14,041 nucleotides of DNA from Sulfurimonas sp. SAG-AH-194-I05. Its GTDB lineage: Bacteria; Campylobacterota; Campylobacteria; Campylobacterales; Sulfurimonadaceae. The position numbers were made by a program, and so were the translations under genes. This document shows, piece after piece, positions 1 to 13,711 of this stretch. How positions within the stretch are numbered: position 1 is the first letter of the stretch; each line of letters starts with the position of its first letter. The notes beneath the pieces are model-generated. The model was not told where the DNA came from and made no database searches. It worked only from the letters and a program-made list of their open reading frames with translations. Location: positions 1 to 14,041 of the forward strand of contig JAEMVA010000044.1 of the NCBI GenBank assembly GCA_029215955.1, given 5' to 3'.

Positions 1-879
1 ATGTGTGTAGACCCTTCTTCCTGCTTTACGAACAAAAGCAAGATGGAGTTTATTGATATAACTCTCGCTGTGTAAATATTTAGTATCATGTCCTAACTGG
101 CATTTAACTACACCTTCTTTGATTGTGCTTTCATCTAGTTCAAATTCACCATCTATACTCTTCGTTAGATACTTGGTAATATCTTCTTCGTAACGATCCA
201 CCATCATTGTTTTGGTATAAAACTCTACAGGTGTCCAACTTCCACTTTTAAACTCTCGTTGTTCAATTTCTGGAAGATAGTGTTCTGTTCTAGTTGCATC
301 ACCTTTTGCCTTATGCGCATTCATCCTATATTTCTCTGCAAACTTTTGTTTCAACATGGAAGTAAGACCAATGTGGCTACGGTCAATAGGAAATGCTTGC
401 TTAAATTTGAAAAAATACGGTTGTATGTAGCGTCCCTTAAAATCCTGTACGAACTCCACAAGTGCAAATATCTCGTCAACATTAGCAACAGATGCAGCAA
501 TATGTGCATGAAGTGCTCCTCCCTCTGGTTGTACTTCCACTACCGCAAAGTATCTGATGTCATGTTTGAACCGCTTGCTTCTCTGCATTCGATAGAGGAA
601 CCCCATTAGGCTGTTGTATTGAGTTTCTGCAACTTCGAGTATCTTTTTCTGCGACATTCGCTGAAAGTTAACACGACTATCTTTTCCAAAAGTCAATGTT
701 ATCATCGCCATATGCCGCCCATCTTCTGCGGCATACCTAGCCATTGCAGAGGCTTTGTTTTTGAGTTGAGCAATTTTCATTTTGCCTCTCTTCTCGCTCC
801 ACTTATCCTTCTGCTCTAGCTGTACCATCGACTCTAGTGCCAGCGCAGTGTCCTGAGTATTTCTTTCTTTTTGTGTCAT
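1..879 (-). CDS. HUH-type rolling-circle replication initiator (Rep), N-terminal 293 aa; the 3' end runs off the left edge of the window
   Basis: Absent from the ORF track because there is no stop inside the window. Hand translation of the reverse strand starts at ATG (complement of 877-879), preceded by GAGAGGAAAATATT, and stays open for all 293 codons to base 1: MTQKERNTQDTALALES...MAMITLTFGKD...EGGALHAHIAASV...EEDITKYLTKSIDG...GRRVYTH. The three classical RCR Rep motifs occur in order. Motif 1 is ITLTF (aa 60-64), motif 2 is HUH as H-A-H-I (aa 124-127, nt 499-510), and motif 3 is Y-x-x-K as YLTK (aa 237-240). The + strand ORFs 259-609 and 619-819 are antisense shadows of this gene. Confidence 0.7.
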   Translation of the reverse strand, partial: MTQKERNTQDTALALESMVQLEQKDKWSEKRGKMKIAQLKNKASAMARYAAEDGRHMAMITLTFGKDSRVNFQRMSQKKILEVAETQYNSLMGFLYRMQRSKRFKHDIRYFAVVEVQPEGGALHAHIAASVANVDEIFALVEFVQDFKGRYIQPYFFKFKQAFPIDRSHIGLTSMLKQKFAEKYRMNAHKAKGDATRTEHYLPEIEQREFKSGSWTPVEFYTKTMMVDRYEEDITKYLTKSIDGEFELDESTIKEGVVKCQLGHDTKYLHSESYINKLHLAFVRKAGRRVYTH

Positions 880-919
880 AATATTTTCCTCTCATGCGAC
901 AATTAATTTTATTTACTTG

Positions 920-946
920 TATCCCAAAGTACACCCTGCTATACCC
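920..946. repeat. Three phased iteron-like direct repeats (TATCCC / TACACCC / TATACCC) in the Rep upstream region
   Basis: TATCCC is at 920-925, TACACCC at 930-936 and TATACCC at 940-946. Each copy starts exactly 10 bp after the previous one, which is one helical turn. The block lies 41-67 bp upstream of the Rep start codon (879, minus strand). The repeats are visible directly; a role as operator or iteron is inference. Confidence 0.35.
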
Positions 947-1046
947 TTCTGGAAAGCGATTTCAGGTGAATTTTTGACATTAAAAATGTGTCCCGCTTGG
1001 GTAGCATTTTTGGTTTTTGGATATTTGATATATCTACTTAGTTGTT

Positions 1047-1370
1047 CTAGTTGTGTTTTACTACTTCTTTTACTGTTTCTGTGAGCATTCGTTTATAGTC
1101 CGTAAGACAGATTATTTCTTGTTTCTCTAACACAAGAGGGTTTACAGAATCCATATTTATTGTTGTAGCTTTGATTGATATATTTGTATTAGTCTCTATT
1201 CTCGAAAGTTCAATGCCGCTGTTGAAATTAGCTAAGCTCGGTAGAACATTTGATTTAAGACTGAGTTGCAGATTCATTAGATATACTGTCGGTCTCTTAA
1301 CTACAACAGTAGCATCAGTAGATGCTGCAACTCTTTTTGTTTCACCTCCATGTAAAATATTTGTTTTCAT
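1047..1370 (-). CDS. Hypothetical protein, 107 aa, no recognisable motif
   Basis: ORF from the track. Its ATG (complement of 1368-1370) lies 2 nt after the stop of the upstream HTH gene (TAATTATG) and has an AAGGTG Shine-Dalgarno-like sequence about 10 nt upstream. It shares strand and packing with the neighbouring Rep and HTH genes. The overlapping + strand ORF 1171-1446 is treated as an antisense shadow. Confidence 0.5.
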   Translation of the reverse strand: MKTNILHGGETKRVAASTDATVVVKRPTVYLMNLQLSLKSNVLPSLANFNSGIELSRIETNTNISIKATTINMDSVNPLVLEKQEIICLTDYKRMLTETVKEVVKHN

Positions 1371-1372
1371 AA

Positions 1373-1577
1373 TTAGGCACCTTTTGATGCAACTCTACCT
1401 GATGCAATTAATACTTCTACATCCGCTCTTTTATAGAGAATCTTAGTAGTACCAGGTAAGACATAATATGGGAGTATTCCATCAGCTCTAAGCTTAGACT
1501 GTAGTCCAGCTTTTATACTGTGTCCATTTTACATCTACGGTTATTGGCTGTTGTGAAATATCTGTTGATTGAGTCAC
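1373..1577 (-). pseudogene. Xis/AlpA-like helix-turn-helix (excisionase-family) gene interrupted by a +1 frameshift
   Basis: On the reverse strand, AAAAGGAGCTACA is followed by GTG (complement of 1575-1577). This opens MTQSTDISQQPITVDVKWTQYKSWTTV and stops at TAA (1494-1496). A second frame is open from 1528 down to the stop at 1373-1375. It has no start codon and encodes ...SIKAGLQSKLRADGILPYYVLPGTTKILYKRADVEVLIASGRVASKGA. That sequence has the excisionase-type layout of an HTH followed by 'LP.Y.(I/L).G....(F/Y)(K/R)..D(L/V)E..(I/L)'. The total span is 205 nt (3n+1). Removing one A from either A4 run on the coding strand (T4 at 1527-1530 or 1511-1514) restores a single ORF of about 67 aa. 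Confidence 0.45.
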
Positions 1578-1682
1578 TGTAGCTCCTTTTGTTTTTGTTA
1601 CAATGATATTATGAACAAAAAAATCTAGAAATAGGAATGAAGTATGAACGATATGATAGAAAAGGGTTAGATTAAGGGGGTA

Positions 1683-2624
1683 CTAAAAATTTGAAGTGTA
1701 TCTATCGAGGTGTAATCTCGCAAATTTATAAAAGTAATGGTCGCATCGTAATTGTAAAATACGAATAGTATATATAGGTAACTTATCATCACCATATGTC
1801 CACTCTAGGAGGATAGAAAAATTGTATTTATTGTAGTCTATTTCATTTATATGGGACTCTATATAAAGAATCTTTTGTTTACCTTGAATCTTTACTGACC
1901 AAGAGAAATTTTTTGCTATGTATTTCATTTGTGCTTTTAAAGCCTTTGTTTCTTCTGATGCAAACAGTTTGTGTACTTCTTGTTTGTAGTGACTATTGGC
2001 TTTGTAATATTTGCATTTTTGCTGATCTGTATTCTCATTGGAACTGATATACTCACTGACATAGTAAGCAAATTTAAGAGAACATTCTGCTCCAAAATTC
2101 TCTTCAAACCAAGCCCTTGCATAGAACTTACATATCGATAGGAATTTAGTATCTTTTAGTGTATGATTTTTACTAAGTCTCTTCTTGGCATCTTGTTCTA
2201 TCTGCTTATCCGTTGTTCTTATAGCATTACCTTGAGTATTTAGTTGTGTAATAATTTCTGCCAGTTCTCTGGAAATTATCGCTTCTTCTTTTATCATTCC
2301 TTTTGAAGGAGAACTCATCTGGTCGTAATCAGATTTAAGTTTTGGATAGAAATAACAAGCCCAGTTCAGAAAATGGAGAAAAGAGATGCTCTGCAACAGT
2401 GATGACTGTTCCAGTTTACTTTCCGAGGGAATAAGTGTTAAAAAGTGAAAAGGCGATGAAGGAGATACATTTTCATACTTAAAGTTTAAGTAGTTTTTAT
2501 TTGGGTTGAACTCATTAGGGTTAATCTTCACATCTCTTATCATTAAAGATGGGTACTCTTTTGAGATCATTGTATTATGTCTTTTTTGGAACAAGTCAAA
2601 GGCTTGGAGTCCTGTTTCTATCAT
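1683..2624 (-). CDS. Hypothetical protein, 313 aa, no recognisable domain; divergent from hsdM
   Basis: Long ORF from the track in very AT-rich DNA; a spot count of 1801-1860 gives 18/60 G+C. A weak TAGGG Shine-Dalgarno-like sequence precedes ATG 2624. No TM segment, nucleotide-binding motif or nuclease motif was found by eye. The internal ORFs 1937-2122 (-) and 2506-2691 (+) are shadows. Confidence 0.6.
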   Translation of the reverse strand: MIETGLQAFDLFQKRHNTMISKEYPSLMIRDVKINPNEFNPNKNYLNFKYENVSPSSPFHFLTLIPSESKLEQSSLLQSISFLHFLNWACYFYPKLKSDYDQMSSPSKGMIKEEAIISRELAEIITQLNTQGNAIRTTDKQIEQDAKKRLSKNHTLKDTKFLSICKFYARAWFEENFGAECSLKFAYYVSEYISSNENTDQQKCKYYKANSHYKQEVHKLFASEETKALKAQMKYIAKNFSWSVKIQGKQKILYIESHINEIDYNKYNFSILLEWTYGDDKLPIYTIRILQLRCDHYFYKFARLHLDRYTSNF

Positions 2625-2666
2625 TACATACCCTACTGTTTTACTATCACTATATTCATATTGCTC

Positions 2667-2675
2667 ATTATATCA
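2667..2675 (-). promoter_or_regulatory. Candidate extended -10 promoter element (TGaTATAAT on the minus strand) for the 313-aa gene
   Basis: The + strand ATTATATCA at 2667-2675 is the reverse complement of TGATATAAT, a perfect TGnTATAAT match. It lies 42 nt upstream of ATG 2624. No convincing -35 element is present. AT-rich DNA produces such matches fairly easily. Confidence 0.35.
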
Positions 2676-2683
2676 TCTTACTT

Positions 2684-2692
2684 TGCTATAAT
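2684..2692 (+). promoter_or_regulatory. Candidate extended -10 promoter element (TGcTATAAT) for the hsdM operon
   Basis: TGCTATAAT at 2684-2692 is a perfect TGnTATAAT match, 24 nt upstream of the hsdM ATG (2717). An AGGA RBS sits at 2707-2710. It stands back-to-back with the minus-strand element at 2667-2675 in the 92-bp divergent intergenic region. Confidence 0.4.
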
Positions 2693-2716
2693 ATAGACAA
2701 ATCAATAGGATAAGCT

Positions 2717-4321
2717 ATGACTGAACAGAAGTTTTTACAAGATTTAGAGAAGAAATTGTGGGCATCGGCGAATACTCTTCGTTCTAACATCTCAGCAGCA
2801 CTCTATAGAGATGTGGTGTTGGGTTTAGTGTTCTTGAAGTATGTATCTGACAGTATGGATGCTAGACGACTAGAGTTAGAAGCAGCGTTTAAAGATCCTC
2901 AAAATGATTACTTTTTAGGTGAAGATGCGGATGAGTCATTCATTAAAGAAGAGTTAGAGACTCGTGACTACTACACAGAGAAAAATGTTTTTTGGGTTCC
3001 AGAGCAGGCACGATGGCAGTATGTGCAAGATTGTGCAGGGCTTACTATTGGTGCAGCTCTTCCACTTGGAGGTGAGTTTAAAGGTTTAGCAAAACTCTTA
3101 GATGACACGATGGATACCATAGAAAAAGCAAATCCTAAACTAAAGAACATCCTAAACAAAGGTTACTCTCGCCTTGACATCGACCCAATTAAGCTTAAGA
3201 AGCTTGTTGTTGAAATTATCTCTACTATTCCATTTAATCATGAGAGCCTAGGCTCAAAGGATATCATCGGGCATATATATGAGTATTTCTTAGGGAAGTT
3301 TGCACTTGAAGAGGGGCAAAATGGTGGGAAATTTTACACACCTAAATCTATAGTCAATCTTATCGTTGAAATGATAGAGCCATACAAAGGACGAGTTTAT
3401 GACCCAGCTATGGGAAGCGGTGGTTTCTTTGTTTCTTCTGAAAAGTTCATTGAAGAGCATAGTGGACGAATCGGAGATATCGCTGTATATGGTCAAGAGT
3501 CAGATCCTACTACTTGGAAGTTAGCTGTGATGAACATGGTTATCCGTGGGATAGACTTTGACTTTGGGAAACAAGCTAGAAGTACATTTACAAATGACCA
3601 ACACCTAGACTTAAGAGCAGACTATGTTCTTGCAAATCCTCCATTTAACCAAGATGAAGATGACTGGTGGGATGCAACTTTAGAGGGTGATGCACGGTGG
3701 AAATATGGAACACCTCCAAAAGGTAATGCCAACTATGCTTGGATACAGCATATGTTACACCATACTAACACGAACGGAGTAGTCGGACTTGTTCTCTCTA
3801 ACGGTTCACTTAGTACAACTTCTGGTGGTGAAGATACAATCCGAAAAGCAATTATCGAAGCAGACTTACTTGAAGCTATAGTAGCTCTTCCTACACAACT
3901 CTTTGGTAACACTCAAATTCCTGCTTGCATATGGATACTTAACAAAAATAAGCCACAAAAGGGCAAAACTCTCTTCATTGATGCTAGAGAAGTTGGGCAT
4001 ATGATAGACCGTAAGCAGAGGGCTTTTGATGTAGCAGACCTAAAGGCTATTGCTGAGACTTTTCACAAGTATAGAACTGGAACTGAGTATGAAGATGTTG
4101 TGGGTGAATACTTCGCTGCAACTACAGAAGATATAGCTAAACAGGATTATATCTTAACACCTGGGCGATATGTAGGTGTAGTAGAAGAGGAAGATGACGG
4201 TGTTCCTTTTGCTGAGAAGATGGGGTTACTTACGGCTACACTTGGAGAACAGTTTGCGGAGTCGGCTCGGTTGGAGAGTGAGATAAAGAAGAACTTATTA
4301 GGGCTTGGGTATGAGTTCTAA
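2717..4321 (+). CDS. hsdM: Type I restriction-modification system, DNA methyltransferase subunit M (N6-adenine)
   Basis: 534-aa ORF. It has an N-terminal HsdM_N-type helix (KLWASANTLRSN). AdoMet-binding motif I is DPAMGSGGF (aa 229-237, nt 3401-3427). Catalytic motif IV is NPPF (aa 307-310, nt 3635-3646). Length and position directly upstream of and overlapping hsdS are typical. Confidence 0.95.
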   Translation: MTEQKFLQDLEKKLWASANTLRSNISAALYRDVVLGLVFLKYVSDSMDARRLELEAAFKDPQNDYFLGEDADESFIKEELETRDYYTEKNVFWVPEQARWQYVQDCAGLTIGAALPLGGEFKGLAKLLDDTMDTIEKANPKLKNILNKGYSRLDIDPIKLKKLVVEIISTIPFNHESLGSKDIIGHIYEYFLGKFALEEGQNGGKFYTPKSIVNLIVEMIEPYKGRVYDPAMGSGGFFVSSEKFIEEHSGRIGDIAVYGQESDPTTWKLAVMNMVIRGIDFDFGKQARSTFTNDQHLDLRADYVLANPPFNQDEDDWWDATLEGDARWKYGTPPKGNANYAWIQHMLHHTNTNGVVGLVLSNGSLSTTSGGEDTIRKAIIEADLLEAIVALPTQLFGNTQIPACIWILNKNKPQKGKTLFIDAREVGHMIDRKQRAFDVADLKAIAETFHKYRTGTEYEDVVGEYFAATTEDIAKQDYILTPGRYVGVVEEEDDGVPFAEKMGLLTATLGEQFAESARLESEIKKNLLGLGYEF

Positions 4322-5672
4322 GTTTACAAATGTAAGATTAGGCGATTGCTGTTCTAAAATAGGTAGTGGTTCAACTCCAAGGGGCGGTAGCAATGTTTAT
4401 CTTGAATCAGGCGAATATGCCTTGTTTCGTAGTCAAAATATATATAACAATGGTTTTGCTACAAATGGTTTAGTGTATATTACTGCTGAAGCTGCAACAA
4501 AACTAAAGAATGTAACAATACTTGAAGATGACATACTGTTGAATATTACTGGTGATTCTGTTGCTAGAGTTTGTATAGCTCCATCAGAATTTTTACCTGC
4601 AAGAGTTAATCAACATGTTGCAATAATTAGAACAGATAGTTTAGAGTTAAATTCAAAGTATACTCGCTACTATTTATCATCATCCTATATGCAAAAAAAT
4701 ATGCTGTCATTAGCTTCCGTAGGAGCCACAAGAAATGCTCTAACAAAAGTAATGATTGAAGATTTTATGATTCCAAAACCACCTCTACAAATCCAGCAAA
4801 AAATAGCCGATATCCTCTCAACCCTAGATGAAAAAATAGAACTCAATCGTAAGATGAACCAAACACTAGAAGAGATGGCTCAGACACTTTTTAAGTCTTG
4901 GTTTGTAGACTTTGACCCTGTACATGCAAAGGCTGGTTGTAAAAGTGATGCAGAACTAGAAAAAGCCGCTACTGAACTTGGCATATCTAAAGAGATACTA
5001 GACCTATTCCCGAGTGAGCTTGAAGAGAATGAGATGGGGATGATTCCGAAGGGCTGGGCAGTTAAAGTCTTATCTGATGTAATTGATTTTCAAAATGGAT
5101 ACTCTTTCAAAAGTAAAGAATTACATAAGGATATTATTAACTCAACTAAAGTCTTTAAGATGGGACATATTCATCGTGGTGGTGGATTTAAGGAAGAAGG
5201 AAAAGACACCTACTTCTACAATATGAATCCTGAAAGAATGAATAAATACCTTCTCAAACAAGGAGATATATTAATGGCAATGACTGATATGAAAGCAAAT
5301 ATGGCTCTTTTAGCTCATACAGCTTTGATGCCACACACTAACAGATATTTACTAAACCAAAGAGCGGGAAGACTAAGAGTTAAAGATTCATCTATTTTAA
5401 ATTATCCATATGTATATATATTTTCTAATCATCCTAGCACAATTCAGGACTTAAGAAGTAGGTCAAACAGTGGGGTACAAGTGAATTTAACAACTATAGC
5501 TATATTAGATACAAAAATAATAGTTCCAGCTCCCAATATTCATGTAATATTTGATGAAATGGTACTGTCGTTGTTTAATAAATTATTTGTGAATAATAAA
5601 GAAATTATTAATTTACAGAAAACAAGAGATACACTCCTCCCGAAACTATTGTCAGGAGAGGTGGAAGTATAG
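4311..5672 (+). CDS. hsdS: Type I restriction-modification system, specificity subunit S
   Basis: This has the hallmark HsdS layout. Variable target-recognition domain 1 (about aa 10-150, ...RLGDCCSKIGSGSTP...) is followed by a conserved central helix (...QQKIADILSTLDEKIELNRKMNQTLEEMAQTLFKSWFVDFDPV...). A linker (...LFPSELEENEMGMIPKGW) leads into variable domain 2, then the second conserved helix (...LQKTRDTLLPKLLSGEVEV). I prefer ATG 4311 (MSSKFTNV...) to the TTG at 4305 used by the ORF track. Either start overlaps the hsdM stop (4319-4321). Confidence 0.9.
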   Translation: MSSKFTNVRLGDCCSKIGSGSTPRGGSNVYLESGEYALFRSQNIYNNGFATNGLVYITAEAATKLKNVTILEDDILLNITGDSVARVCIAPSEFLPARVNQHVAIIRTDSLELNSKYTRYYLSSSYMQKNMLSLASVGATRNALTKVMIEDFMIPKPPLQIQQKIADILSTLDEKIELNRKMNQTLEEMAQTLFKSWFVDFDPVHAKAGCKSDAELEKAATELGISKEILDLFPSELEENEMGMIPKGWAVKVLSDVIDFQNGYSFKSKELHKDIINSTKVFKMGHIHRGGGFKEEGKDTYFYNMNPERMNKYLLKQGDILMAMTDMKANMALLAHTALMPHTNRYLLNQRAGRLRVKDSSILNYPYVYIFSNHPSTIQDLRSRSNSGVQVNLTTIAILDTKIIVPAPNIHVIFDEMVLSLFNKLFVNNKEIINLQKTRDTLLPKLLSGEVEV

Positions 5673-5674
5673 CT

Positions 5675-6745
5675 ATGTATGACCCTACTGCAAACTTATT
5701 TGAATCATTAGATCCAATGCGTAAATTTAATGAAGATATGAAAAGAATCACCGACCCTATGTATGAGATAAACAAGGCTCTTGACCCAATGCATTCTATA
5801 AACGAAAGTTTGACATTAGCAACACAACCTCTAGTAGATTCTATTTCTGAATTTCAAAAGCGAATGGAATATATATATGATCCAATGAAAAAAATCAATG
5901 AGCATATGGAGTCGATGTTTGACCCATTTAAGAAGATTCAAGAGCAGATGGATTCATTATATTCACTTCCAGACTTGAGCTTTGAAAACCCTTCAATAAA
6001 AGCAGTCCAACAATTACAAGACAGTCTAAATCTTGCTCTAGGCTCAACATCTCTACACAAGTATAATGATTTGGTTTCTAGCCAAATGGAATCTTATAAA
6101 AAGATGGAGAAAGCTCTCTCATCTGCTGCTTCTTCGGTAATTCAAAATCCCTTCCGTTCAGTAGATAGTGTTATAGAAAAAATACTCGAACGAGAAAATG
6201 TAATACAAGCAGCAACACAGAACCCTACACCTGATGATGCCCTAGCAGAGTTTACATCAATGAAAGATGAGATACTAGAATCATTAGATGGTCATCACCT
6301 TAAAGTTGAAGAGCAGTTAGAAAAGATTTATATACTACTAGAGAGCCTAAAAAACCCTTTATTATTAGCTTTCTTTGTGTCTTTTATCTTTCCAATTATT
6401 ATAAATAATATATCTAATGCTATATATGACAATGTTGTTAAACCTGCCATCGCAAGCTCTAGGGCTACCAAAGTTCAACTAAAGAAAGAAGTAAATCGCA
6501 ATGTTAAATCTGTATTGAGTCATTCTGGAGTAATTGGAAACTATCGTATAGTGTCAGTTAACACACTAAATGTGAGAAAGAATCACTCCACTAAGTCAAA
6601 AATAATTGGATATACCTTTTTCGGTGAGGTGGTTGAAATTATAGAGAAGAAACGGAATTGGTGTTTGATTAAACGATATGACTCTGAAAGTGAAACATAT
6701 GTACAAGGCTGGGTATTTACTAGATACTTGGGAAGGATAACATAA
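5675..6745 (+). CDS. Membrane protein of unknown function: N-terminal 'DPM' repeat region, one TM helix, C-terminal SH3b-like domain (356 aa)
   Basis: The ATG lies 2 nt after the hsdS stop (TAG 5670-5672), downstream of GGAGAGGTGGAAG. About aa 1-95 carry repeated DP[MF]xx[IF][NQ]E units. A hydrophobic segment PLLLAFFVSFIFPIIINNISNAIY spans aa 228-251 (nt 6356-6427). The C-terminus is YRIVSVNTLNVRKNHSTKSKIIGYTFFGEVVEIIEKKRNWCLIKRYDSESETYVQGWVFTRYL (aa 290-352). It fits the bacterial SH3 (SH3_3) pattern 'LNVR...s..skvig.l..Ge.v.v.....nW..v......GWv...yl'. Confidence 0.8.
   Translation: MYDPTANLFESLDPMRKFNEDMKRITDPMYEINKALDPMHSINESLTLATQPLVDSISEFQKRMEYIYDPMKKINEHMESMFDPFKKIQEQMDSLYSLPDLSFENPSIKAVQQLQDSLNLALGSTSLHKYNDLVSSQMESYKKMEKALSSAASSVIQNPFRSVDSVIEKILERENVIQAATQNPTPDDALAEFTSMKDEILESLDGHHLKVEEQLEKIYILLESLKNPLLLAFFVSFIFPIIINNISNAIYDNVVKPAIASSRATKVQLKKEVNRNVKSVLSHSGVIGNYRIVSVNTLNVRKNHSTKSKIIGYTFFGEVVEIIEKKRNWCLIKRYDSESETYVQGWVFTRYLGRIT
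5681..5959 (+). repeat. In-frame coding repeats: six or seven Asp-Pro-initiated units inside ORF 5675-6745
   Basis: DP (or QP) dipeptides start at aa 3, 13, 27, 37, (51), 69 and 83. The units are DPTANLFESL / DPMRKFNEDMKRIT / DPMYEINKAL / DPMHSINESLTLAT / (QPLVDSISEF...) / DPMKKINEHMESMF / DPFKKIQEQMDSL. Spacing alternates between 10 and 14 residues, which gives a 24-residue super-repeat. At DNA level a GAYCCNATG motif recurs. Confidence 0.7.
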
Positions 6746-7287
6746 TGAGTGAAACTTTTGATAAATTCTTGAAATTATTGCATTTAGAACCTAGAACACT
6801 GTTTGGAATAGTGTTACTTGGAAGTATATTGCTCTTTGGTACAGAAGAATTTTTAACTACTTTTGGATTAGAATTGTTCAGGAATGACTACAAAGGCTGG
6901 ATAGGAATAATAACTTTAATTTCAGCTATATTCTTTCTAATTCAACTATTACCTTGGATACAAAATATATATCATCAATATAAATATGAGCAAAAGGTCA
7001 TAGAATATCTAAGCAGTTTATCTCGTGAAGAATCTTTGCTTTTGTTGTACTGTAAACGAAAGAAACAACAAAGTTTATCTTTACCAGTTACCCATGGTAC
7101 AGCAAAGTCCTTGGTATCAAAAGGAATAATGGAACAAGCAGGTGGTAATGGTAGCATGATGGAATGGCCATATACAGTAAGTAATATTGTTTGGAAAAAG
7201 ATATTAACAGACGAGACAGTATTGCCTCATATTGTACCTGATGACGAGCTGAAAAGATATGAACAAGTTATTTATAACATATATTAG
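6745..7287 (+). CDS. Two-TM membrane protein resembling the superinfection exclusion protein B (SieB) family (180 aa)
   Basis: Its start overlaps the previous stop (TAATG at 6743-6747), with an AAGGA RBS 8 nt upstream. Two hydrophobic helices are present: TLFGIVLLGSILLFGT (aa 18-33) and GWIGIITLISAIFFLIQLLPWI (aa 51-72). The soluble tail is ...VIEYLSSLSREESLLLLYCKRKKQQSLSLPVTHGTAKSLVSKGIMEQAGGNG.... This layout matches my memory of SieB-family (Pfam SieB) proteins: N-terminal 'L.LP.r.lf.i.l.s...LF.p...l..lgL..f...y..wIGi..l.s...l', then 'L..Ls..Ek..L..f...........l.......v..L..kGI'. The assignment comes from recall, not from a search. Confidence 0.55.
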   Translation: MSETFDKFLKLLHLEPRTLFGIVLLGSILLFGTEEFLTTFGLELFRNDYKGWIGIITLISAIFFLIQLLPWIQNIYHQYKYEQKVIEYLSSLSREESLLLLYCKRKKQQSLSLPVTHGTAKSLVSKGIMEQAGGNGSMMEWPYTVSNIVWKKILTDETVLPHIVPDDELKRYEQVIYNIY

Positions 7288-7296
7288 GACTGAATA

Positions 7297-10200
7297 ATGA
7301 TTAACGAAGACCAAGTAGAACAGTTAGCGATAGAGTGGTTTAAAGAGTTAGGATATGACTACTTATGCGGTTACGACATTGCTCCAGATAGTGATGATCC
7401 ACAAAGAGAAAACTATCAAGAAGTGTTACTTTCTAAACGCTTACATGTAGCCCTAACTAAACTCAACCCAACACTTCCAGCTTCTGCCATAGATGAAGCT
7501 CTCCATATTCTACAAAAGCCACAACACACTAGCCTCATCCAAAACAACCGTGCTTTTCAGATACAACTTTTACAAGGTATCTCTGTAGATGTTAAAGTAG
7601 CAGATGAAACAAAAGGTGAAGTTGTTAAGATCGTAGATTTTCACAACATAGAGAACAATGACTTCTTAGTTGTAAATCAATTCACCATAAAAGGCACAAA
7701 AGGCAATCGCAGACCTGACTTGGTAGTGTTCATAAATGGACTTCCTATCTCTGTCATAGAGCTAAAAAATCCTGCTGATGAAAATGCAGATATATTTAAA
7801 GCCTACAACCAACTACGAACTTATAAGGATGAGATAGAAGACCTCTTTGTTTACAATGAAGCTTTGGTTATCAGTGATGGTATCAATGCCCGTGTTGGCT
7901 CCCTTACTGCTACTGATGAGCGATATATGCAGTGGAGAACTATCAAGGACGAAAACGATAAACCACTCTTAGAGTATGAACTAGACACACTCATAAAAGG
8001 TTTCTTCGAGAAAGAACATCTACTAGACTACATACAAAGCTTTGTTCTGTTTGAGGATGATGGAAAGAATATCATTAAAAAGATAGCAGGGTATTATCAG
8101 TTTCATGCGGTAAGAGCTGCTGTAGACTCTGTTATGCAAGCATCTATCAGTGGAAGCAAACGCGGGGGTGTTGTTTGGCATACTCAAGGAAGTGGAAAGT
8201 CTATCTCTATGGCTTGTTTTGCAGGGAAATTAACAAGACAGAGTGAGATGAAAAACCCTACACTTTTGGTAGTAACAGATAGAAACGACTTAGACGGTCA
8301 GCTTTTTGCAACATTTTCAAGTGCGAAGATGTTACTGGGTCAAGAACCGGTACAGATAGATAGTGTGGATGATTTGAGAGAGACCCTACAGAACAAACCC
8401 TCTGGTGGGATTATATTTACGACTATACAGAAGTTCTCTTTGAAGAAAACAGAAAGTCAGTTTCCTATATTGAGTGAGAGAAGCAATATTGTAGTTATTG
8501 CTGATGAAGCACACCGAAGTCAGTATGGATTTGATGCGGTGCTTAACTCTGAGACGGGAGCTTACAAGTACGGCTATGCACAACACCTTAGAGATGCTAT
8601 TCCTAATGCTACATTTATTGGGTTTACGGGAACACCTATTGAGAGTGAAGACAAAGACACTCGTGCGGTATTTGGTGAGTACATTTCTGTGTATGACATT
8701 GAAGATGCGGTAGCTGATGGTGCTACTGTGCCTATTTATTATGAGAGTCGATTGGCGAAGTTAGATTTAGATTCGGATGTGTTAAAAGAGATAGATGAGG
8801 AAGTGGGTGAACTTGTTGAAGATGAAGAAGCAAGTGATGCTGAGAAGTTCAAAAGTAAGTGGAGTGCATTAGAAAAGCTTGTTGGGTCTAAGCCTAGGAT
8901 AGAGCAAGTTGCTCGTGACTTAGTGGAACACTTCGAAGATAGGATAGCGGCTATTGAGGGTAAAGGGATGATTGTTGCGATGAGTCGTCAGATTGCAGTT
9001 GAGTTGTATGATGCTATTGTAGCGATTAGACCTGATTGGCATGATGAAGATCCTACTAAGGGAGCTATAAAAGTTATCATGACGGGTAGTGCTAGTGATA
9101 GCGAAAAACTACAACAGCATATCTACAACAAGCAGACTAAAAAAGCATTAGAGAAACGAATCAAAGATGAAAATGATGAGCTGAAACTTGTCATCGTTCG
9201 AGATATGTGGCTTACTGGATTTGATGCACCAAGTATGCACACGATGTACATAGATAAACCGATGAAGTCTCATAACCTTATGCAAGCCATAGCCAGAGTG
9301 AACCGTGTGTTTAAAGACAAAAAAGGTGGTCTTGTTGTTGATTATATTGGGATTGCAAATGAGCTTAAAGCTGCTCTGAAAACTTACACTGGAGCGGGTG
9401 GAAAAGGCACGGGGACTATTGATACAGCAGAAGCACTTGCAGAGATGTTAAAACGACTAGATATTGTGAGTAATATGTATCATGGATTTGATTATAGCGA
9501 GTATGAGACAAAGGCACATATGCTCCTTGCACCTGCTGCGAATCATATACTTGGACTAAAAGATGGAAAAAAACGATACTTAGATGAGGTGTTGGCATTG
9601 ACTAAGGCATTTAGTCTGTGTGGGACACTCGATGCTGCTAAAGAGAAGAAAGAAGAGATAGCATTTTTCCAAGCAGTGAAGTCTATCATTCAAAAGGCTG
9701 GACGAACAGTGAAGAGTAAGAAGGACCCGAACAATGTTATTAAGCAGATAATAGATAATGCTCTTATCTCTGATGGGATTGAAGATATCTTTTCACTTGT
9801 AGGATTAGAGAAGCCAAATATTGGAATATTATCTGCAGAGTTCTTGGCAGATGTTGCGAATATGAAGCATAAGAACTTAGCAGTAGAACTCCTAGAGAAG
9901 CTACTCAATGATGAGATAAAAGCGAAGAGTAGAACAAACATCGTTCAAGAGAAGAAGTTTAGCGATAGACTCCAAGCGACACTTGGGAAGTACCACAATA
10001 GAGCGATAGAAACAGCTAAGGTTATAGAAGAGCTGATTCAGATGGCAAAAGATTTTGCAGCAGCGACTAAGCATGGTGAAGATTTAGGGCTAAACTTTGA
10101 TGAGTTGGCTTTTTATGACGCACTTGCTGAGAATGAGTCAGCGATGAAAGAGATGGGTGATGAGATACTAAAAAGTATTGCTCTTGAACTTACGAATAAA

Positions 10201-10374
10201 CTACGAAATAGCATTAGTGTGGATTGGCAGAAGAGGGAGAGTGTTAGAGCGAAGATGAGAAATATGATTCGTATCATACTTAGACGATTTAAGTATCCAC
10301 CTGATGAACAGATGGAAGCGATAGATATGGTGATGAAACAAGCGGAAGTGCTTAGTGATGAGTGGAGTAAGTAA
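7297..10374 (+). CDS. hsdR: Type I restriction enzyme, endonuclease/translocase subunit R
   Basis: 1025-aa ORF with an AGGA RBS 8 nt upstream. The N-terminal PD-(D/E)xK nuclease motif is [19 protein letters not shown] (aa 139-157, nt 7711-7767). SF2 helicase motif I is HTQGSGKS (aa 295-302, nt 8179-8202), motif II is DEAH (aa 403-406, nt 8503-8514), motif III is GFTGTP and motif VI is QAIARVNR. The helical C-terminal region (...[16 protein letters not shown]...[14 protein letters not shown]...) is typical of long HsdR proteins. Confidence 0.95.
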
Positions 10375-10375
10375 G

Positions 10376-12328
10376 ATGATTCAAAATGCAGAAGATATAG
10401 CGAACCTAAGTGAGAGTGTTGAATTAGAGTGTAAACTAGCTAATGGAAGAGATGGTAAAGGTGGATTACCAGGGAAAACTTTTTGGGAAACTTACAGTGC
10501 TTTTGCGAACACTAATGGGGGAACTCTTCTGCTTGGAGTTAAGGAGAATAAAGACCATACCTTTGAGGTTGTCGGAGTTCAAAATATACAGAAAGTTTTA
10601 GATGAACTATGGACATCAGTAGCTAATGTTGAAATAATCAGTTGTAATTTACTACGGGATGAAAATGTCCAAGTTTTGACAATAGATTCTAAAGAAATTA
10701 TAAAGATAGTTATCCCAAGAGCATCACGATATGAGAAGCCTGTTCATCGAACAACGAACCCTATTGAATGGACTTACCAAAGATTACATAGTTCAGATGT
10801 AAAATGCTCGAAAGAGACTGTTCGCCGTATGTTAGCTGAACAACTAGAAGATAGCAGAGATGATAAGCTACTAGAAAATTTCACTATGGCTGATGTTGAT
10901 TTAGAGACACTTCGTTCATATAGACAAATTTATATAAATCGTGATGCAAGTAATGAACGAAATCGTTATGAGGATATTGAATTTCTTCGTAGTATTGGTG
11001 CTTGGAAAAAAGACCGTAAAACAGGGCTAGAAGGTTTGACAATTGCGGGGCTTTTAATGTTTGGAAAGCTTATGAGTATACAAGAAGAGTTTCCAAATTA
11101 TATGCTCGACTATCAAGAAAGAGCTGAAGCTAAAACTGAGGCTAGATGGATAGATCGCATTAGCTTAGATGGAACATGGTCTGGGAACTTATTTGATTTT
11201 TACACTCGTGTCATTCGTAAGTTAACAATTGATTTGAAAATTCCTTTTCAACTCAAAGGAGACCAGAGACAAGATACTACACCAGTGCATGATGCACTCC
11301 GTGAAGCATTGGTAAATACTATTGTACATGCTGACTACAGCGGTAAAGCTTCTGTCTTAATAGTGAAGAGACCAGATATGTTTGGATTTAGAAATCCTGG
11401 ACTAATGCGAATTTCTATTGAGCAGGCAGTAAGTGGATATGAACACGATTGTAGGAATGAGAAACTACATCAGATGTTTCATTTCATAGGTCTTGGGGAA
11501 AGAGCAGGTTCTGGTATACCAAATATATTTAAGTGGTGGGGAGCGAATCACTGGAGACCTCCATATTTACATGAGAAGCTAGAACCGTATGATCAAACAC
11601 TCTTTGAATTACGAATGGTAGATTTGATTTCAGAGGATATTATTGTTGAGATGCAAAGGCTATTTGGAGAACAATTTAACAGTTTAAATAATACTGCTAG
11701 GCTAATCTTAGCTACAGCATACAGCGAACAAACAGTTACTCATGCAAGGCTCAAAGAGATTAGCGATACTCATAATTATGATTTATCACAGACCTTACAT
11801 AAGTTAGTGCAGGATCGTATGCTATCCTCAAATGGCTATGGACAAGGAACAGTTTATTTTCTTCCAAACCAAACTCTTGTTACTCCAGATGATGTTTTTG
11901 GGGCTACAGTAACACATAACAATGAAGTAGTTACTCATAATGGAGAGACAGTAAAATATGGTGGTCTATGGGTTAGCTCTGGGGGTATGGGTGTAAGCTC
12001 TGGGGGTTATGTAGTTGATGGACTAGCTTATCCGATTTTTGATAGCATTGGCTCCCTTAGTGATGAGCTTACGGAGAGTTTACATGCTATGGCGAAGCCA
12101 GTAATTGATAGCAAGAGGTTTCCTAAAACTGAGTTTAGAACAATTGTAAAGAACTTATGTGTAGAGAAATATCTTACATTAGCTGTTTTAGCTGAACTAC
12201 TCAATAGAACTGAGGATTATATTCGTAAAGATATACTAAATCCTATGGTTGAAGAAGAAGAACTTTTACGAGCATTCCCAAAGACACCGAATGATCCTAG
12301 ACAGGCATACACATCAACAAAAGTATAA
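10376..12328 (+). CDS. COG2865-type protein: N-terminal AlbA_2 (Schlafen-like) domain, HATPase_c_4-like domain and C-terminal winged-helix segments (650 aa)
   Basis: I moved the start to ATG 10376. It lies 1 nt after the hsdR stop at 10372-10374, with GGAG at 10363-10366. The track used GTG 10355. The N-terminus ...SESVELECK...YSAFANTNGGTLLLGV fits the AlbA_2 signature 'E...lEfK ... AfaNt.GG.l.iGv'. The middle ...ALREALVNTIVHADYS...GFRNPG...RNEKLHQMFHFIGLGERAGSGIPNIF fits the HATPase_c_4 signature. wHTH-like segments and the terminal ...PNDPRQAY are typical of this family, which is often annotated as 'RecG-like ATP-binding protein' or 'transcriptional regulator'. Confidence 0.8.
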   Translation: MIQNAEDIANLSESVELECKLANGRDGKGGLPGKTFWETYSAFANTNGGTLLLGVKENKDHTFEVVGVQNIQKVLDELWTSVANVEIISCNLLRDENVQVLTIDSKEIIKIVIPRASRYEKPVHRTTNPIEWTYQRLHSSDVKCSKETVRRMLAEQLEDSRDDKLLENFTMADVDLETLRSYRQIYINRDASNERNRYEDIEFLRSIGAWKKDRKTGLEGLTIAGLLMFGKLMSIQEEFPNYMLDYQERAEAKTEARWIDRISLDGTWSGNLFDFYTRVIRKLTIDLKIPFQLKGDQRQDTTPVHDALREALVNTIVHADYSGKASVLIVKRPDMFGFRNPGLMRISIEQAVSGYEHDCRNEKLHQMFHFIGLGERAGSGIPNIFKWWGANHWRPPYLHEKLEPYDQTLFELRMVDLISEDIIVEMQRLFGEQFNSLNNTARLILATAYSEQTVTHARLKEISDTHNYDLSQTLHKLVQDRMLSSNGYGQGTVYFLPNQTLVTPDDVFGATVTHNNEVVTHNGETVKYGGLWVSSGGMGVSSGGYVVDGLAYPIFDSIGSLSDELTESLHAMAKPVIDSKRFPKTEFRTIVKNLCVEKYLTLAVLAELLNRTEDYIRKDILNPMVEEEELLRAFPKTPNDPRQAYTSTKV

Positions 12329-12414: not shown

Positions 12415-13110
12415 TTATGCTGCAACCTGAGAGTTAATAGGCTTACTCCATTTACGGGAATTTCCATTCCAGAAGTAGCCTGCATTTTTAATTTCAGCTT
12501 TATAGGTAAAGGTATCTCCACCTGTCACGATCAGCTCTCCATTTTGTTCAACTACAACTAGACCTAATGAAGCTAAATCATAATTAGTATTTGTTTGGGG
12601 TTGATGTTGAATTTGTTGAGGCTCTTGCATCTGTTGTTGACTTCCTCTAATTTGATTTGAATTAGTGTAGTCTACATCCCTCTGCTGTGGGTCGTACAAT
12701 GGATTTCCCAGAGAATTTCCGAAGCTTTTGGCACTGCGTTTAATTCCATCAGAAACACTCGCTTTGGATGCAGTTTCCATTGCTTCACCTAGAGACTTTG
12801 CCACTGATACAGACACACCATTGTCTTCACGAACTATATAATGCTTATGTGCTGTGTCCCAAACTTTGAGTCTTACTATGGCAGAAAATGTTACTACGAA
12901 GTTGCCGTTCTGATTTGTTGTAGAGCTAATCATATCCAGTCTTTTAACTTGTGTCTCCCATCCATCGTAACCGAAGATAAGATTGAGTGTATTGATGATG
13001 TCAAAAGTAGGAAGATAAGAGAACTTTCTCCCTGCTTTCTCTAGTGTTTTCACTCTTGAACCATCCAGAGGATAGCTTAAAAGCTTTTGTTGTCTATCGT
13101 TGAAAAACAT
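12415..13110 (-). CDS. Rad52/Rad22-family single-strand annealing protein (phage Sak-like recombinase) with a Q-rich linker and an extra C-terminal module (231 aa)
   Basis: I moved the start to ATG (complement of 13108-13110) with AAGGAG 6 nt upstream. The track used TTG 13140, which would overlap the upstream gene. The core is MFFNDRQQKLLSYPLDGSRVKTLEKAGRKFSYLPTFDIINTLNLIFGYDGWETQV...ASKASVSDGIKRSAKSFGNSLGNPLYD. It fits the conserved core of prophage Rad52-family proteins ('L..PL....vk.r...g..lsY.....vi..lN.iFG.dGW' and 'sDa.KRa.k.fGn.lGn.LYd'). Confidence 0.8.
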   Translation of the reverse strand: MFFNDRQQKLLSYPLDGSRVKTLEKAGRKFSYLPTFDIINTLNLIFGYDGWETQVKRLDMISSTTNQNGNFVVTFSAIVRLKVWDTAHKHYIVREDNGVSVSVAKSLGEAMETASKASVSDGIKRSAKSFGNSLGNPLYDPQQRDVDYTNSNQIRGSQQQMQEPQQIQHQPQTNTNYDLASLGLVVVEQNGELIVTGGDTFTYKAEIKNAGYFWNGNSRKWSKPINSQVAA

Positions 13111-13123
13111 AATATACTCCTTT

Positions 13124-13711
13124 TTATGCTGCTGCTTCAACTAAGTTGAGCAGTTCATCAGCTTGTGTATTTATCGCTGATCGTTTTGTGTTTATTTTAA
13201 TCTTTGCAGGTGTAATGATGTCTTCTGAAGAAACTGATACAAACGCATCCAATTCTTTGAAACCATTTACAGTTTTCATGGCTAAGGTTATTTCTTCAAT
13301 ATCTGGTTCATATTTGATATACCCGAGTCTCATTACGGCTTTAGCATCTGTAACGACAAGAGATGTCTTAGTTTTTACAGATGGCTTCGTGAGAGTAAGA
13401 GAACTGATAATGTTCCCATCTATACGATCCACACCATTATCTTCAAACACAGAAGCGGTAACTTCCTTAGCTATATCTAAGGCAGATGTTAGTTTTTTCT
13501 TCAACTGCTGTAGCTCTTGAATATCTTGAGCAAGAAAATCTATCTTGGACTTCAGTTCATTAAGCGACAAGCCAACATAATCAGCTCGTTGATGATAAGG
13601 CTTCGAGTTGTCCTCAATAATAGTGCGAATATAATCTGCGAAGAACTCTGTTGACTTCTCTGATGAAAGCGACTCTATTTGTGTTTGTAGCTGGTAATTT
13701 ACAAGTTTCAT
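13124..13711 (-). CDS. Phage coiled-coil protein with Gp157-like / Mu-Gam-like architecture (195 aa); family assignment tentative
   Basis: ORF from the track with an AAGGAAA RBS 7 nt upstream. A central heptad-like coiled coil (LNELKSKIDFLAQDIQELQQLKKKLTSALDIAKE) is followed by a beta-rich C-terminal part (...SLTLTKPSVKTKTSLVVTD...IKINTKR). It sits immediately upstream of the annealing protein, where phages commonly place Gp157-family or Gam-like genes. I cannot tell the two families apart by eye. Confidence 0.4.
   Translation of the reverse strand: MKLVNYQLQTQIESLSSEKSTEFFADYIRTIIEDNSKPYHQRADYVGLSLNELKSKIDFLAQDIQELQQLKKKLTSALDIAKEVTASVFEDNGVDRIDGNIISSLTLTKPSVKTKTSLVVTDAKAVMRLGYIKYEPDIEEITLAMKTVNGFKELDAFVSVSSEDIITPAKIKINTKRSAINTQADELLNLVEAAA

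Follow-up and report, generated by a model that had tools for sequence, protein, structure and literature searches.

What do two genes for predicted membrane proteins do inside a type I restriction–modification (R–M) operon, and do they belong together? The question is raised by a contig of Sulfurimonas sp. SAG-AH-194-I05 (JAEMVA010000044.1), analysed here over 14,041 nucleotides (nt) and referred to as the window. All genes of its R–M operon lie on the + strand, and two open reading frames (ORFs), ORF1 and ORF2, stand between hsdS and hsdR. A preliminary description had taken them for a two-gene membrane cassette at the position of prrC in the Escherichia coli prr locus, tightly joined to a canonical type I system on both sides. 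Its first product was seen to have Pro-punctuated repeats, one transmembrane (TM) helix and an SH3b-like domain, its second two TM helices and a SieB-like soluble domain, and no named defence system of this composition was known. This anatomy holds up in our analysis, whereas the pairing does so in part. Our preferred reading, to which we give a probability of roughly 0.55, is that the hsdS–hsdR interval serves as a slot for embedded defence genes, with the SieB-family protein encoded by ORF2 as self-contained abortive-infection cargo and the SH3-domain protein encoded by ORF1 as an accessory of this operon lineage.

The frame is a canonical type I system, with Pfam and PADLOC matches for hsdM, hsdS and hsdR (Table 1), and the ORF pair indeed occupies the interval that holds prrC in E. 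coli. Its tight junctions were reproduced to the nucleotide. The hsdS stop codon TAG (5670-5672) is followed after a 2-nt gap by the ORF1 ATG at 5675, the ORF1 stop TAA (6743-6745) overlaps the ORF2 ATG (6745-6747) in the string TAATG (6743-6747), and between the ORF2 stop TAG (7285-7287) and the hsdR ATG at 7297 there is a 9-nt gap, with AGGA at 7286-7289. Promoter- and terminator-like sites within the operon showed no excess over shuffled sequence, which is consistent with its co-transcription, though short of proof.

Gene orders in related loci (designated by L numbers) carry the argument for a slot. We compared hsd architectures that embed a member of the ORF1 family (n=12) or of the ORF2 subfamily (n=6) in same-strand orientation. 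Of nine Campylobacterota contexts of sufficient length, eight (L001, L002, L004, L007, L009, L010, L012 and L023) have the SH3 gene inside hsdM-hsdS-...-hsdR directly after hsdS. What comes behind it varies. SieB follows in 5 of 12 SH3-bearing architectures (the window, L012, L023, L026/27 and L028). Elsewhere this place is taken by genes for DUF3644 (PDC-S19), Trypsin_2 (PDC-S45), TIR (PDC-S66) and Fic proteins in L001, where the Fic gene matches Pfam Fic_N/Fic/SoFic-like_C, by a PtuA-like AAA_15/21 ATPase in L002, by an AAA_21/AAA_23 ATPase and then an SLFN_AlbA_2 gene in L010, by an SLFN_AlbA_2 gene in L004 and L007, and by a 335-amino-acid (aa) protein without PADLOC model match in L009. 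No cargo follows the SH3 gene in L016, which has the order hsdS-SIR2-SH3-hsdR. In L024/L025, finally, a SieB gene whose product is 67% identical to ORF2 stands directly after hsdS without an SH3 gene, followed by PDC-M59A and Fic.

The tally of distinct architectures thus comes to seven with SH3 but not SieB, five with both, and one (L024) with SieB but not SH3. Judged from these gene orders, ORF1 and ORF2 are separable modules, not a fixed pair. The notion of a two-gene cassette keeps its ground insofar as the pair recurs in five architectures of one HsdR clade, here called clade A; it fails as a general rule, the genes being separate in 7 + 1 architectures and the pair being found in that clade only. 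Most of the cargo behind the SH3 gene matches known or candidate defence families, and PADLOC lists stand-alone systems in or beside these operons (AbiTii, SoFic, PtuA-like, SIR2 and TIR), among them AbiTii between hsdM and hsdS in L001 and SoFic after hsdR in L023. A defence context, as first supposed, applies to all neighbourhoods found of the Campylobacterota relatives of ORF1 and of the close relatives of ORF2. The composition also still lacks a name: PADLOC v2.0.0 (E <= 0.1) and NCBIfam scans returned no informative family for ORF1 or ORF2, and no PADLOC model covers either protein.

How the slot exchanges its contents can be read from the divergence of these loci. The SH3 loci fall into three HsdR clades whose mutual identity is only 57-62%, and the SH3 protein is the sole non-hsd gene product retained in all three; the SH3+SieB pair is restricted to clade A, with at least 81% identity to the window. 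The SH3 protein roughly tracks the HsdR clades but diverges much faster. Between the window and L012, HsdR is 86% and SieB 81% identical, the SH3 protein 35%. At its 3′ end the SH3 gene encodes ...L-G-R-I-x-stop, and in all six junctions compared its final codons hold a Shine-Dalgarno sequence, GGAAGGA or GGGAGGA, with a SieB or an SLFN gene next. The 1-nt overlap with the next ATG is kept before either gene alike. Because Shine-Dalgarno sequence and overlap are constant whichever gene follows, cargo is swapped exactly at the gene boundary. Moreover, the SLFN_AlbA_2 gene that stands after hsdR in the window shares 70% identity with a gene that L004 carries between the SH3 gene and hsdR, so that the same cargo occupies different positions in related operons. 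Exchange also reaches into the SH3 gene itself. In clade C its two halves have different nearest relatives, the N-terminal parts pairing L001 with L010 (86%) and L002 with L009 (87%), the C-terminal parts L002 with L010 (95%) and L001 with L009 (76%), which points to recombination within the gene.

That ORF2 belongs to the SieB family survived both profile and structure searches. It matches Pfam SieB (PF14163) over aa 21-151 of 180 with 73.7 bits (cut-off 26, E 1.5e-20), compared with 103.5 bits for lambda SieB. In hhalign, the 40-sequence family profile A4 aligned with lambda SieB over 130 columns (probability 87%, E 4e-6) and with P22 SieB over 71 columns (probability 86%, E 5e-6), and the best match among the predicted viral structures of BFVD was a 195-aa P22 protein from the sieB region. 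The AlphaFold2 (AF2) model of ORF2 has a mean predicted local distance difference test score (pLDDT) of 82.9; in it, a short helix at the N-terminus precedes the TM hairpin, from which a long helix leads on to a domain of the order H-E-H-E-E-H. The two hydrophobic helices were found by hydropathy scan in 7/7 members of the subfamily. The soluble domain carries the conserved motif LSxEE...C...KG...WPxT..VW, and in a Foldseek search of the PDB nearly all of its top matches, apart from a few ribosomal-protein chains, were MarR-family or CodY winged-helix regulators.

SieB of P22 and lambda halts macromolecular synthesis of a superinfecting phage midway through the lytic cycle (PMC10883804), and Esc, an in-frame product of sieB, shields the phage itself (PMC10883804; PMC3224144). 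ORF2 shares with these proteins the length class (180 aa versus 184-192 aa) and the layout, in which TM helices occupy the N-terminal part and a soluble domain the C-terminal part. It differs in its setting. The sieB genes of lambda and P22 belong to the prophage early region, adjoining ral and N/24, whereas the ORF2 gene lies in a type I R–M operon and not in a prophage immunity region, and no phage relatives of it were detectable by tblastn or in IMG/VR. The SieB gene sits inside hsdM-hsdS-...-hsdR in all seven close relatives, with no relatives found in INPHARED or IMG/VR, and so ORF2 lacks the prophage encoding of lambda and P22 SieB. It may also differ from P22 SieB in that an Esc-type internal start is not evident: the esc start of P22 lies 24 codons into sieB, whereas ORF2 offers no in-frame ATG between its codons 2 and 128, hence no evident Esc analogue, and the GTG at codon 23 is not preceded by a Shine-Dalgarno sequence.

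Beyond the six close homologues of ORF2, their profile retrieved 1037 distant representatives among 1.84 billion proteins; among the matches listed, nearly all are 110-260 aa long, most of them about 160-200 aa. A further large homologue search added eight distant SieB proteins and was dominated by candidates sharing short words with the query. For distant members of the family (22-28% identity) we examined two chromosomal neighbourhoods and one on a plasmid, and none had adjacent hsd genes; the surroundings were DUF6978/DUF1828-1829 genes, a toxin–antitoxin pair with IS66, and a small plasmid. As an observation apart, the SieB-family profile finds 20 separate matching stretches in the 3396-aa protein P0072; the top-scoring stretch covers profile positions 113-147, which form the wing region of the soluble domain. 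It resembles a giant repeat protein made of a SieB-like sub-motif.

ORF1 and its family open with a conserved N-terminal peptide of about 35 aa, after which come a variable number of D-P-M repeats, a helical middle and the TM helix; a basic linker, about 40 aa long, then leads to the SH3b domain. The six D-P-[MFT] motifs start at residues 3, 13, 27, 37, 69 and 83, with none beyond; in the family alignment (A1) the unit reads D-P-M-x-x-(I/F)-N-E-x-M, and block insertions and deletions show that its copy number differs among homologues. The conserved N-terminal peptide and the conserved SH3 domain stand on either side of a spacer of variable length. The N-terminal domain has a net charge of -10 to -24 in 22 of 23 members and +2 in P0043. 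Against PDB sequences its profile found coiled-coil-type matches alone, such as signalling domains of methyl-accepting chemotaxis proteins, designed coiled coils and spike heptad repeats, which we regard as compositional and dismissed as homologues. The SH3b domain is the best-conserved portion of the family and holds most of the invariant A1 columns. Pfam SH3_3 matches aa 297-352 with 46 bits (cut-off 27, E 6e-12). AF2 modelled ORF1 poorly (mean pLDDT 52, with 70-82 in the SH3 part alone), so that the SH3 part alone was used for structure searches. Its top Foldseek matches were almost all SH3b or SH3 domains, with weak scores (best E 0.015), and the best were SH3b domains of Clostridium perfringens at 30-31% identity. 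In PHROGs, ORF1 matches PHROG 23259, of unassigned function, with E 3.7e-7, and ORF2 gave no informative family. The SH3_3 match, in the last 60 aa of ORF1, is a feature shared with the wall-binding SH3b domains found in lysins and wall hydrolases; unlike those enzymes, ORF1 has neither a catalytic domain nor a signal peptide, and its SH3b domain is preceded by 225 aa of acidic coiled coil and one TM helix.

ORF1 has homologues in 40 clusters among 5.8 billion proteins. All organism-named ones are Campylobacterota (Sulfurimonas, Sulfuricurvum and others), and members with the full N-terminal region were found in Campylobacterota records or metagenome contigs only; very distant TM-SH3 proteins of other phyla lie in unrelated loci. 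Compared with the closest loci, ratios of nonsynonymous to synonymous substitution rates (dN/dS) were 0.13-0.25 for ORF1, about 0.09-0.10 for ORF2 and 0.03-0.06 for hsdR, values that are rough because synonymous sites are near saturation. By this substitution pattern and their conservation, ORF1 and ORF2 are genuine genes under purifying selection and not chance ORFs. Phages gave no relatives of either, with nothing significant in tblastn searches of INPHARED with both ORFs and no relatives in pattern scans of IMG/VR with both family alignments. Against plasmids, tblastn found marginal matches of the SH3 protein on an Advenella plasmid and of the SieB protein on a small Tunicatimonas plasmid, in unrelated contexts.

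Defence genes embedded in type I operons are an established theme, to which ORF1 and ORF2 would add, and BREX and DISARM operons harbour such genes as well. In the type IC EcoprrI locus the hsdS–hsdR interval holds PrrC (PMC12707154), TgvAB lies in a type I R–M operon of Vibrio cholerae (PMC11411939), and a guilt-by-embedding survey counted 3,231 embedded families (bioRxiv 10.1101/2024.01.29.577857). In the portions of the main text and supplements of that survey, by Payne et al., that were accessible, neither SieB nor SH3 is mentioned (bioRxiv 10.1101/2024.01.29.577857). Like PrrC, ORF1 and ORF2 are accessory genes between hsdS and hsdR; like TgvAB and the PDC candidates of PADLOC, they are same-strand genes recurrently embedded in a known defence operon, and in related loci the very same slot holds PDC-S19, PDC-S45, PDC-S66 and PDC-M59A. 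ORF1 and ORF2 differ from these candidates in matching no PADLOC model. ORF1 further departs from typical, variable embedded cargo through its retention across the three HsdR clades.

The putative anti-phage activity, membrane mechanism, topology and R–M contact of the two proteins can be sketched as follows. The cargo genes of the slot would be read from the operon transcript via tight or overlapping junctions. The nearly constant first occupant is the predicted membrane protein of ORF1 type, whose final codons hold the ribosome-binding site for the next gene. Behind it comes variable cargo, here ORF2, with its TM hairpin and a winged-helix-like domain that probably faces the cytoplasm. On the simplest view, ORF2 is probably a backup to restriction that aborts infection on its own, in the manner of SieB. 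Like SieB of lambda and P22, it might act on phage that escape restriction and shut down macromolecular synthesis; its soluble domain could sense a phage-made trigger, upon which the TM hairpin would disturb the membrane. The SH3 protein would then be a lineage-specific accessory rather than a dedicated SieB partner; located at the membrane or the cell wall, it may serve the R–M lineage as an adaptor, a tether or a sensor.

Several observations weigh against this reading. The context sample is small, about 13 distinct architectures, mostly from metagenomic contigs. In clade A, SieB follows the SH3 gene in five of six SH3-bearing architectures and always with the same 1-nt overlap, so that ORF1 and ORF2 may be functional partners there. 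The likeness of ORF2 to characterised SieB proteins is detectable at profile level only: the shallow profile A2 gave no significant match to lambda SieB, and tblastn of ORF2 against 50,697 phage records of INPHARED gave nothing significant. The Foldseek scores behind the winged-helix assignment are weak (best E 0.014, TM-score 0.3-0.45). As to ORF1, it has a single TM helix and no signal peptide. Over 15 residues on either side of that helix the charges balance across the family, the linker after it is net positive (+2 to +7), and this charge bias favours neither orientation.

Of the alternatives, the one that fares best, doubtful as we consider it, makes ORF1 a structural accessory of the restriction enzyme and SieB unrelated cargo. 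As an envelope sensor, or as a tether to membrane or peptidoglycan, ORF1 would position or activate the type I complex at the point of phage DNA entry. The persistence of ORF1 in all HsdR clades agrees with such a role, as do its constant coupling to the upstream gene, its provision of a Shine-Dalgarno sequence for the downstream one, the cargo-free end of the L016 slot and a tether-like design with conserved ends around a variable spacer. However, the HsdR type is widespread (it matches PADLOC REase_I over its full length, 1205 bits), whereas the ORF1 family is confined to Campylobacterota records and metagenome contigs. A divergent ORF1 homologue of 418 aa with an N-terminal extension (L017) furthermore stands beside a RhuM-family gene and adjoins, within 754-8909, a trio of an unknown, an MksE and a DUF3584 gene resembling Mks/Wadjet, with no hsd gene on its 12-kb contig. 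The orientation of ORF1, ambiguous from charges and AF2 model, also counts against the idea.

Less probable still is a guard in the manner of PrrC, in which ORF1 and ORF2 would form one membrane effector, kept latent by the type I complex and freed by attack of Ocr-, ArdA- or Stp-like proteins to kill or arrest the cell. Position speaks for it, the operon site being that of prrC (PMC12707154), and so do the tight junctions on both sides of the pair, the linkage of the SH3 gene to hsdS across three HsdR clades and the recurrence of the pair with an identical junction in five clade A architectures. PrrC, however, is a soluble ABC-ATPase/anticodon nuclease, whereas ORF1 and ORF2 are predicted membrane proteins without similarity to it: neither resembles PrrC or RloC, and no ABC-ATPase N-domain or anticodon-nuclease C-domain was hit in either by Pfam, NCBIfam or PADLOC. 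A joint effector also sits badly with the seven architectures that have SH3 without SieB and with L024, which has the converse, and a latency imposed by the R–M complex with the absence of adjacent hsd genes from the distant SieB neighbourhoods, the prophage early location of sieB in lambda and P22 and the presence in the same slot of systems that PADLOC lists as stand-alone. An independent embedded function is hence favoured over a guard.

Membrane-anchored sensing is known from Zorya. An envelope-anchored SH3 protein would resemble that logic, here joined to a classical restriction enzyme: as a dedicated component of this type I lineage it could be held at the wall or membrane by its SH3b domain and, through the conserved N-terminal peptide on a coiled-coil spacer of variable length, dock the restriction complex and perhaps co-embedded effectors such as SieB, so that restriction and abortive infection would be placed or set off at the site of phage DNA entry. 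We hold this version of events to be improbable, a shade more so than a guard. SH3b domains are typical wall-binding modules of endolysins. It is nevertheless very improbable that the two genes are a degenerate prophage lysis cassette, with ORF2 as holin and ORF1 as the remnant wall-binding module of an endolysin, for although a phage amidase PHROG and the phiSM101 endolysin are among the weak matches of ORF1, and the opposite strand carries phage-like Rad52 and Gp157/Gam-like genes downstream, neither gene has relatives in INPHARED (tblastn) or IMG/VR (pattern scans), both are under purifying selection and conserved in hsd operons, ORF1 lacks a catalytic domain, ORF2 matches SieB and no holin family, and the holin–endolysin gene order would be reversed.

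Table 1. Features of the operon and its downstream neighbours, with positions in the window and the evidence for each
Feature	Position	Strand	Evidence or remark
hsdM	2717-4321	+	Pfam N6_Mtase 348 bits, HsdM_N; PADLOC MTase_I 531 bits
hsdS	4305-5672	+	Pfam Methylase_S, two stretches; PADLOC Specificity_I 385 bits
ORF1, 356 aa	5675-6745	+	ORF listing; 40 homologues; dN/dS (values in text)
ORF1 repeat region D-P-[MFT]xx(I/F)N(E/K)xM, aa 3-95	5681-5959	+	Motif positions, family alignment A1
ORF1 TM helix, ~aa 228-250	6356-6424	+	Hydropathy scan, 23/23 family members; helix in AF2 model
ORF1 SH3b domain, ~aa 290-354	6542-6736	+	Pfam SH3_3; invariant A1 columns; Foldseek
Shine-Dalgarno GGGAAGGA for next gene	6730-6737	+	Within final ORF1 codons
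ORF2, 180 aa	6745-7287	+	Pfam SieB; hhalign to lambda/P22 SieB; dN/dS (values in text)
ORF2 TM hairpin, helices ~aa 16-39 and 43-72	6790-6960	+	Hydropathy scan; AF2 model
ORF2 C-terminal winged-helix-like soluble domain, ~aa 90-155	7012-7209	+	AF2, Foldseek, conserved motif
hsdR	7297-10374	+	Pfam HSDR_N, SWI2_SNF2, T1R_D3-like, T1RH-like_C; PADLOC REase_I 1205 bits
SLFN_AlbA_2/HATPase_c_4 gene	10355-12328	+	Pfam; likely start ATG 10376
Rad52/22-like gene	12415-13140	-	Overlaps next gene
Gp157/Mu Gam-like gene	13124-13711	-	Overlaps Rad52/22-like gene

For hsdS, TTG 4305 is the first start listed and ATG 4311 an alternative; the likely ATG of the SLFN_AlbA_2 gene lies one base past the hsdR stop. 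The first 1.6 kb of the window hold short, unconvincing ORFs only, the 313-aa ORF at 1683-2624 on the - strand has no significant match in Pfam, NCBIfam, PHROGs or PADLOC, and tRNA and Rfam scans of the window gave no match. The pair of Rad52/22-like and Gp157/Mu Gam-like genes follows hsdR in L007 also, which suggests, from gene content, that the R–M operon borders a phage-like or mobile recombination module. In the clade C loci L001, L009 and L010 a serine recombinase of 188-189 aa (Pfam Resolvase) stands directly upstream of hsdM, and L002, L009 and L012 have tyrosine integrases in the vicinity. Mobile islands probably carry these operons; alternatively, the locus itself may be a target of the recombinase. 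L002 in addition carries, at 8078-10004, an NTase_sub_bind gene followed by a 504-aa product that joins a Polbeta nucleotidyltransferase to Methylase_S (HsdS); here an MNT/HEPN-type pair has been fused to hsdS, or else gene calling has merged separate genes.

If the preferred reading of an embedded-gene slot is true, it would extend the SieB family from prophage exclusion, which is poorly understood, to cellular defence islands. ORF2 would then offer a compact, phage-independent model for the study of SieB, and its predicted form, a membrane-tethered winged helix, would suggest how SieB senses infection. The SH3 protein, as the sole non-hsd gene product kept and one evolving several-fold faster than HsdR, would become a candidate accessory subunit or arms-race interface of the type I system. 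The locus family as a whole presents a clear case of a precise cargo slot within an operon, in which cassettes are swapped at gene boundaries.

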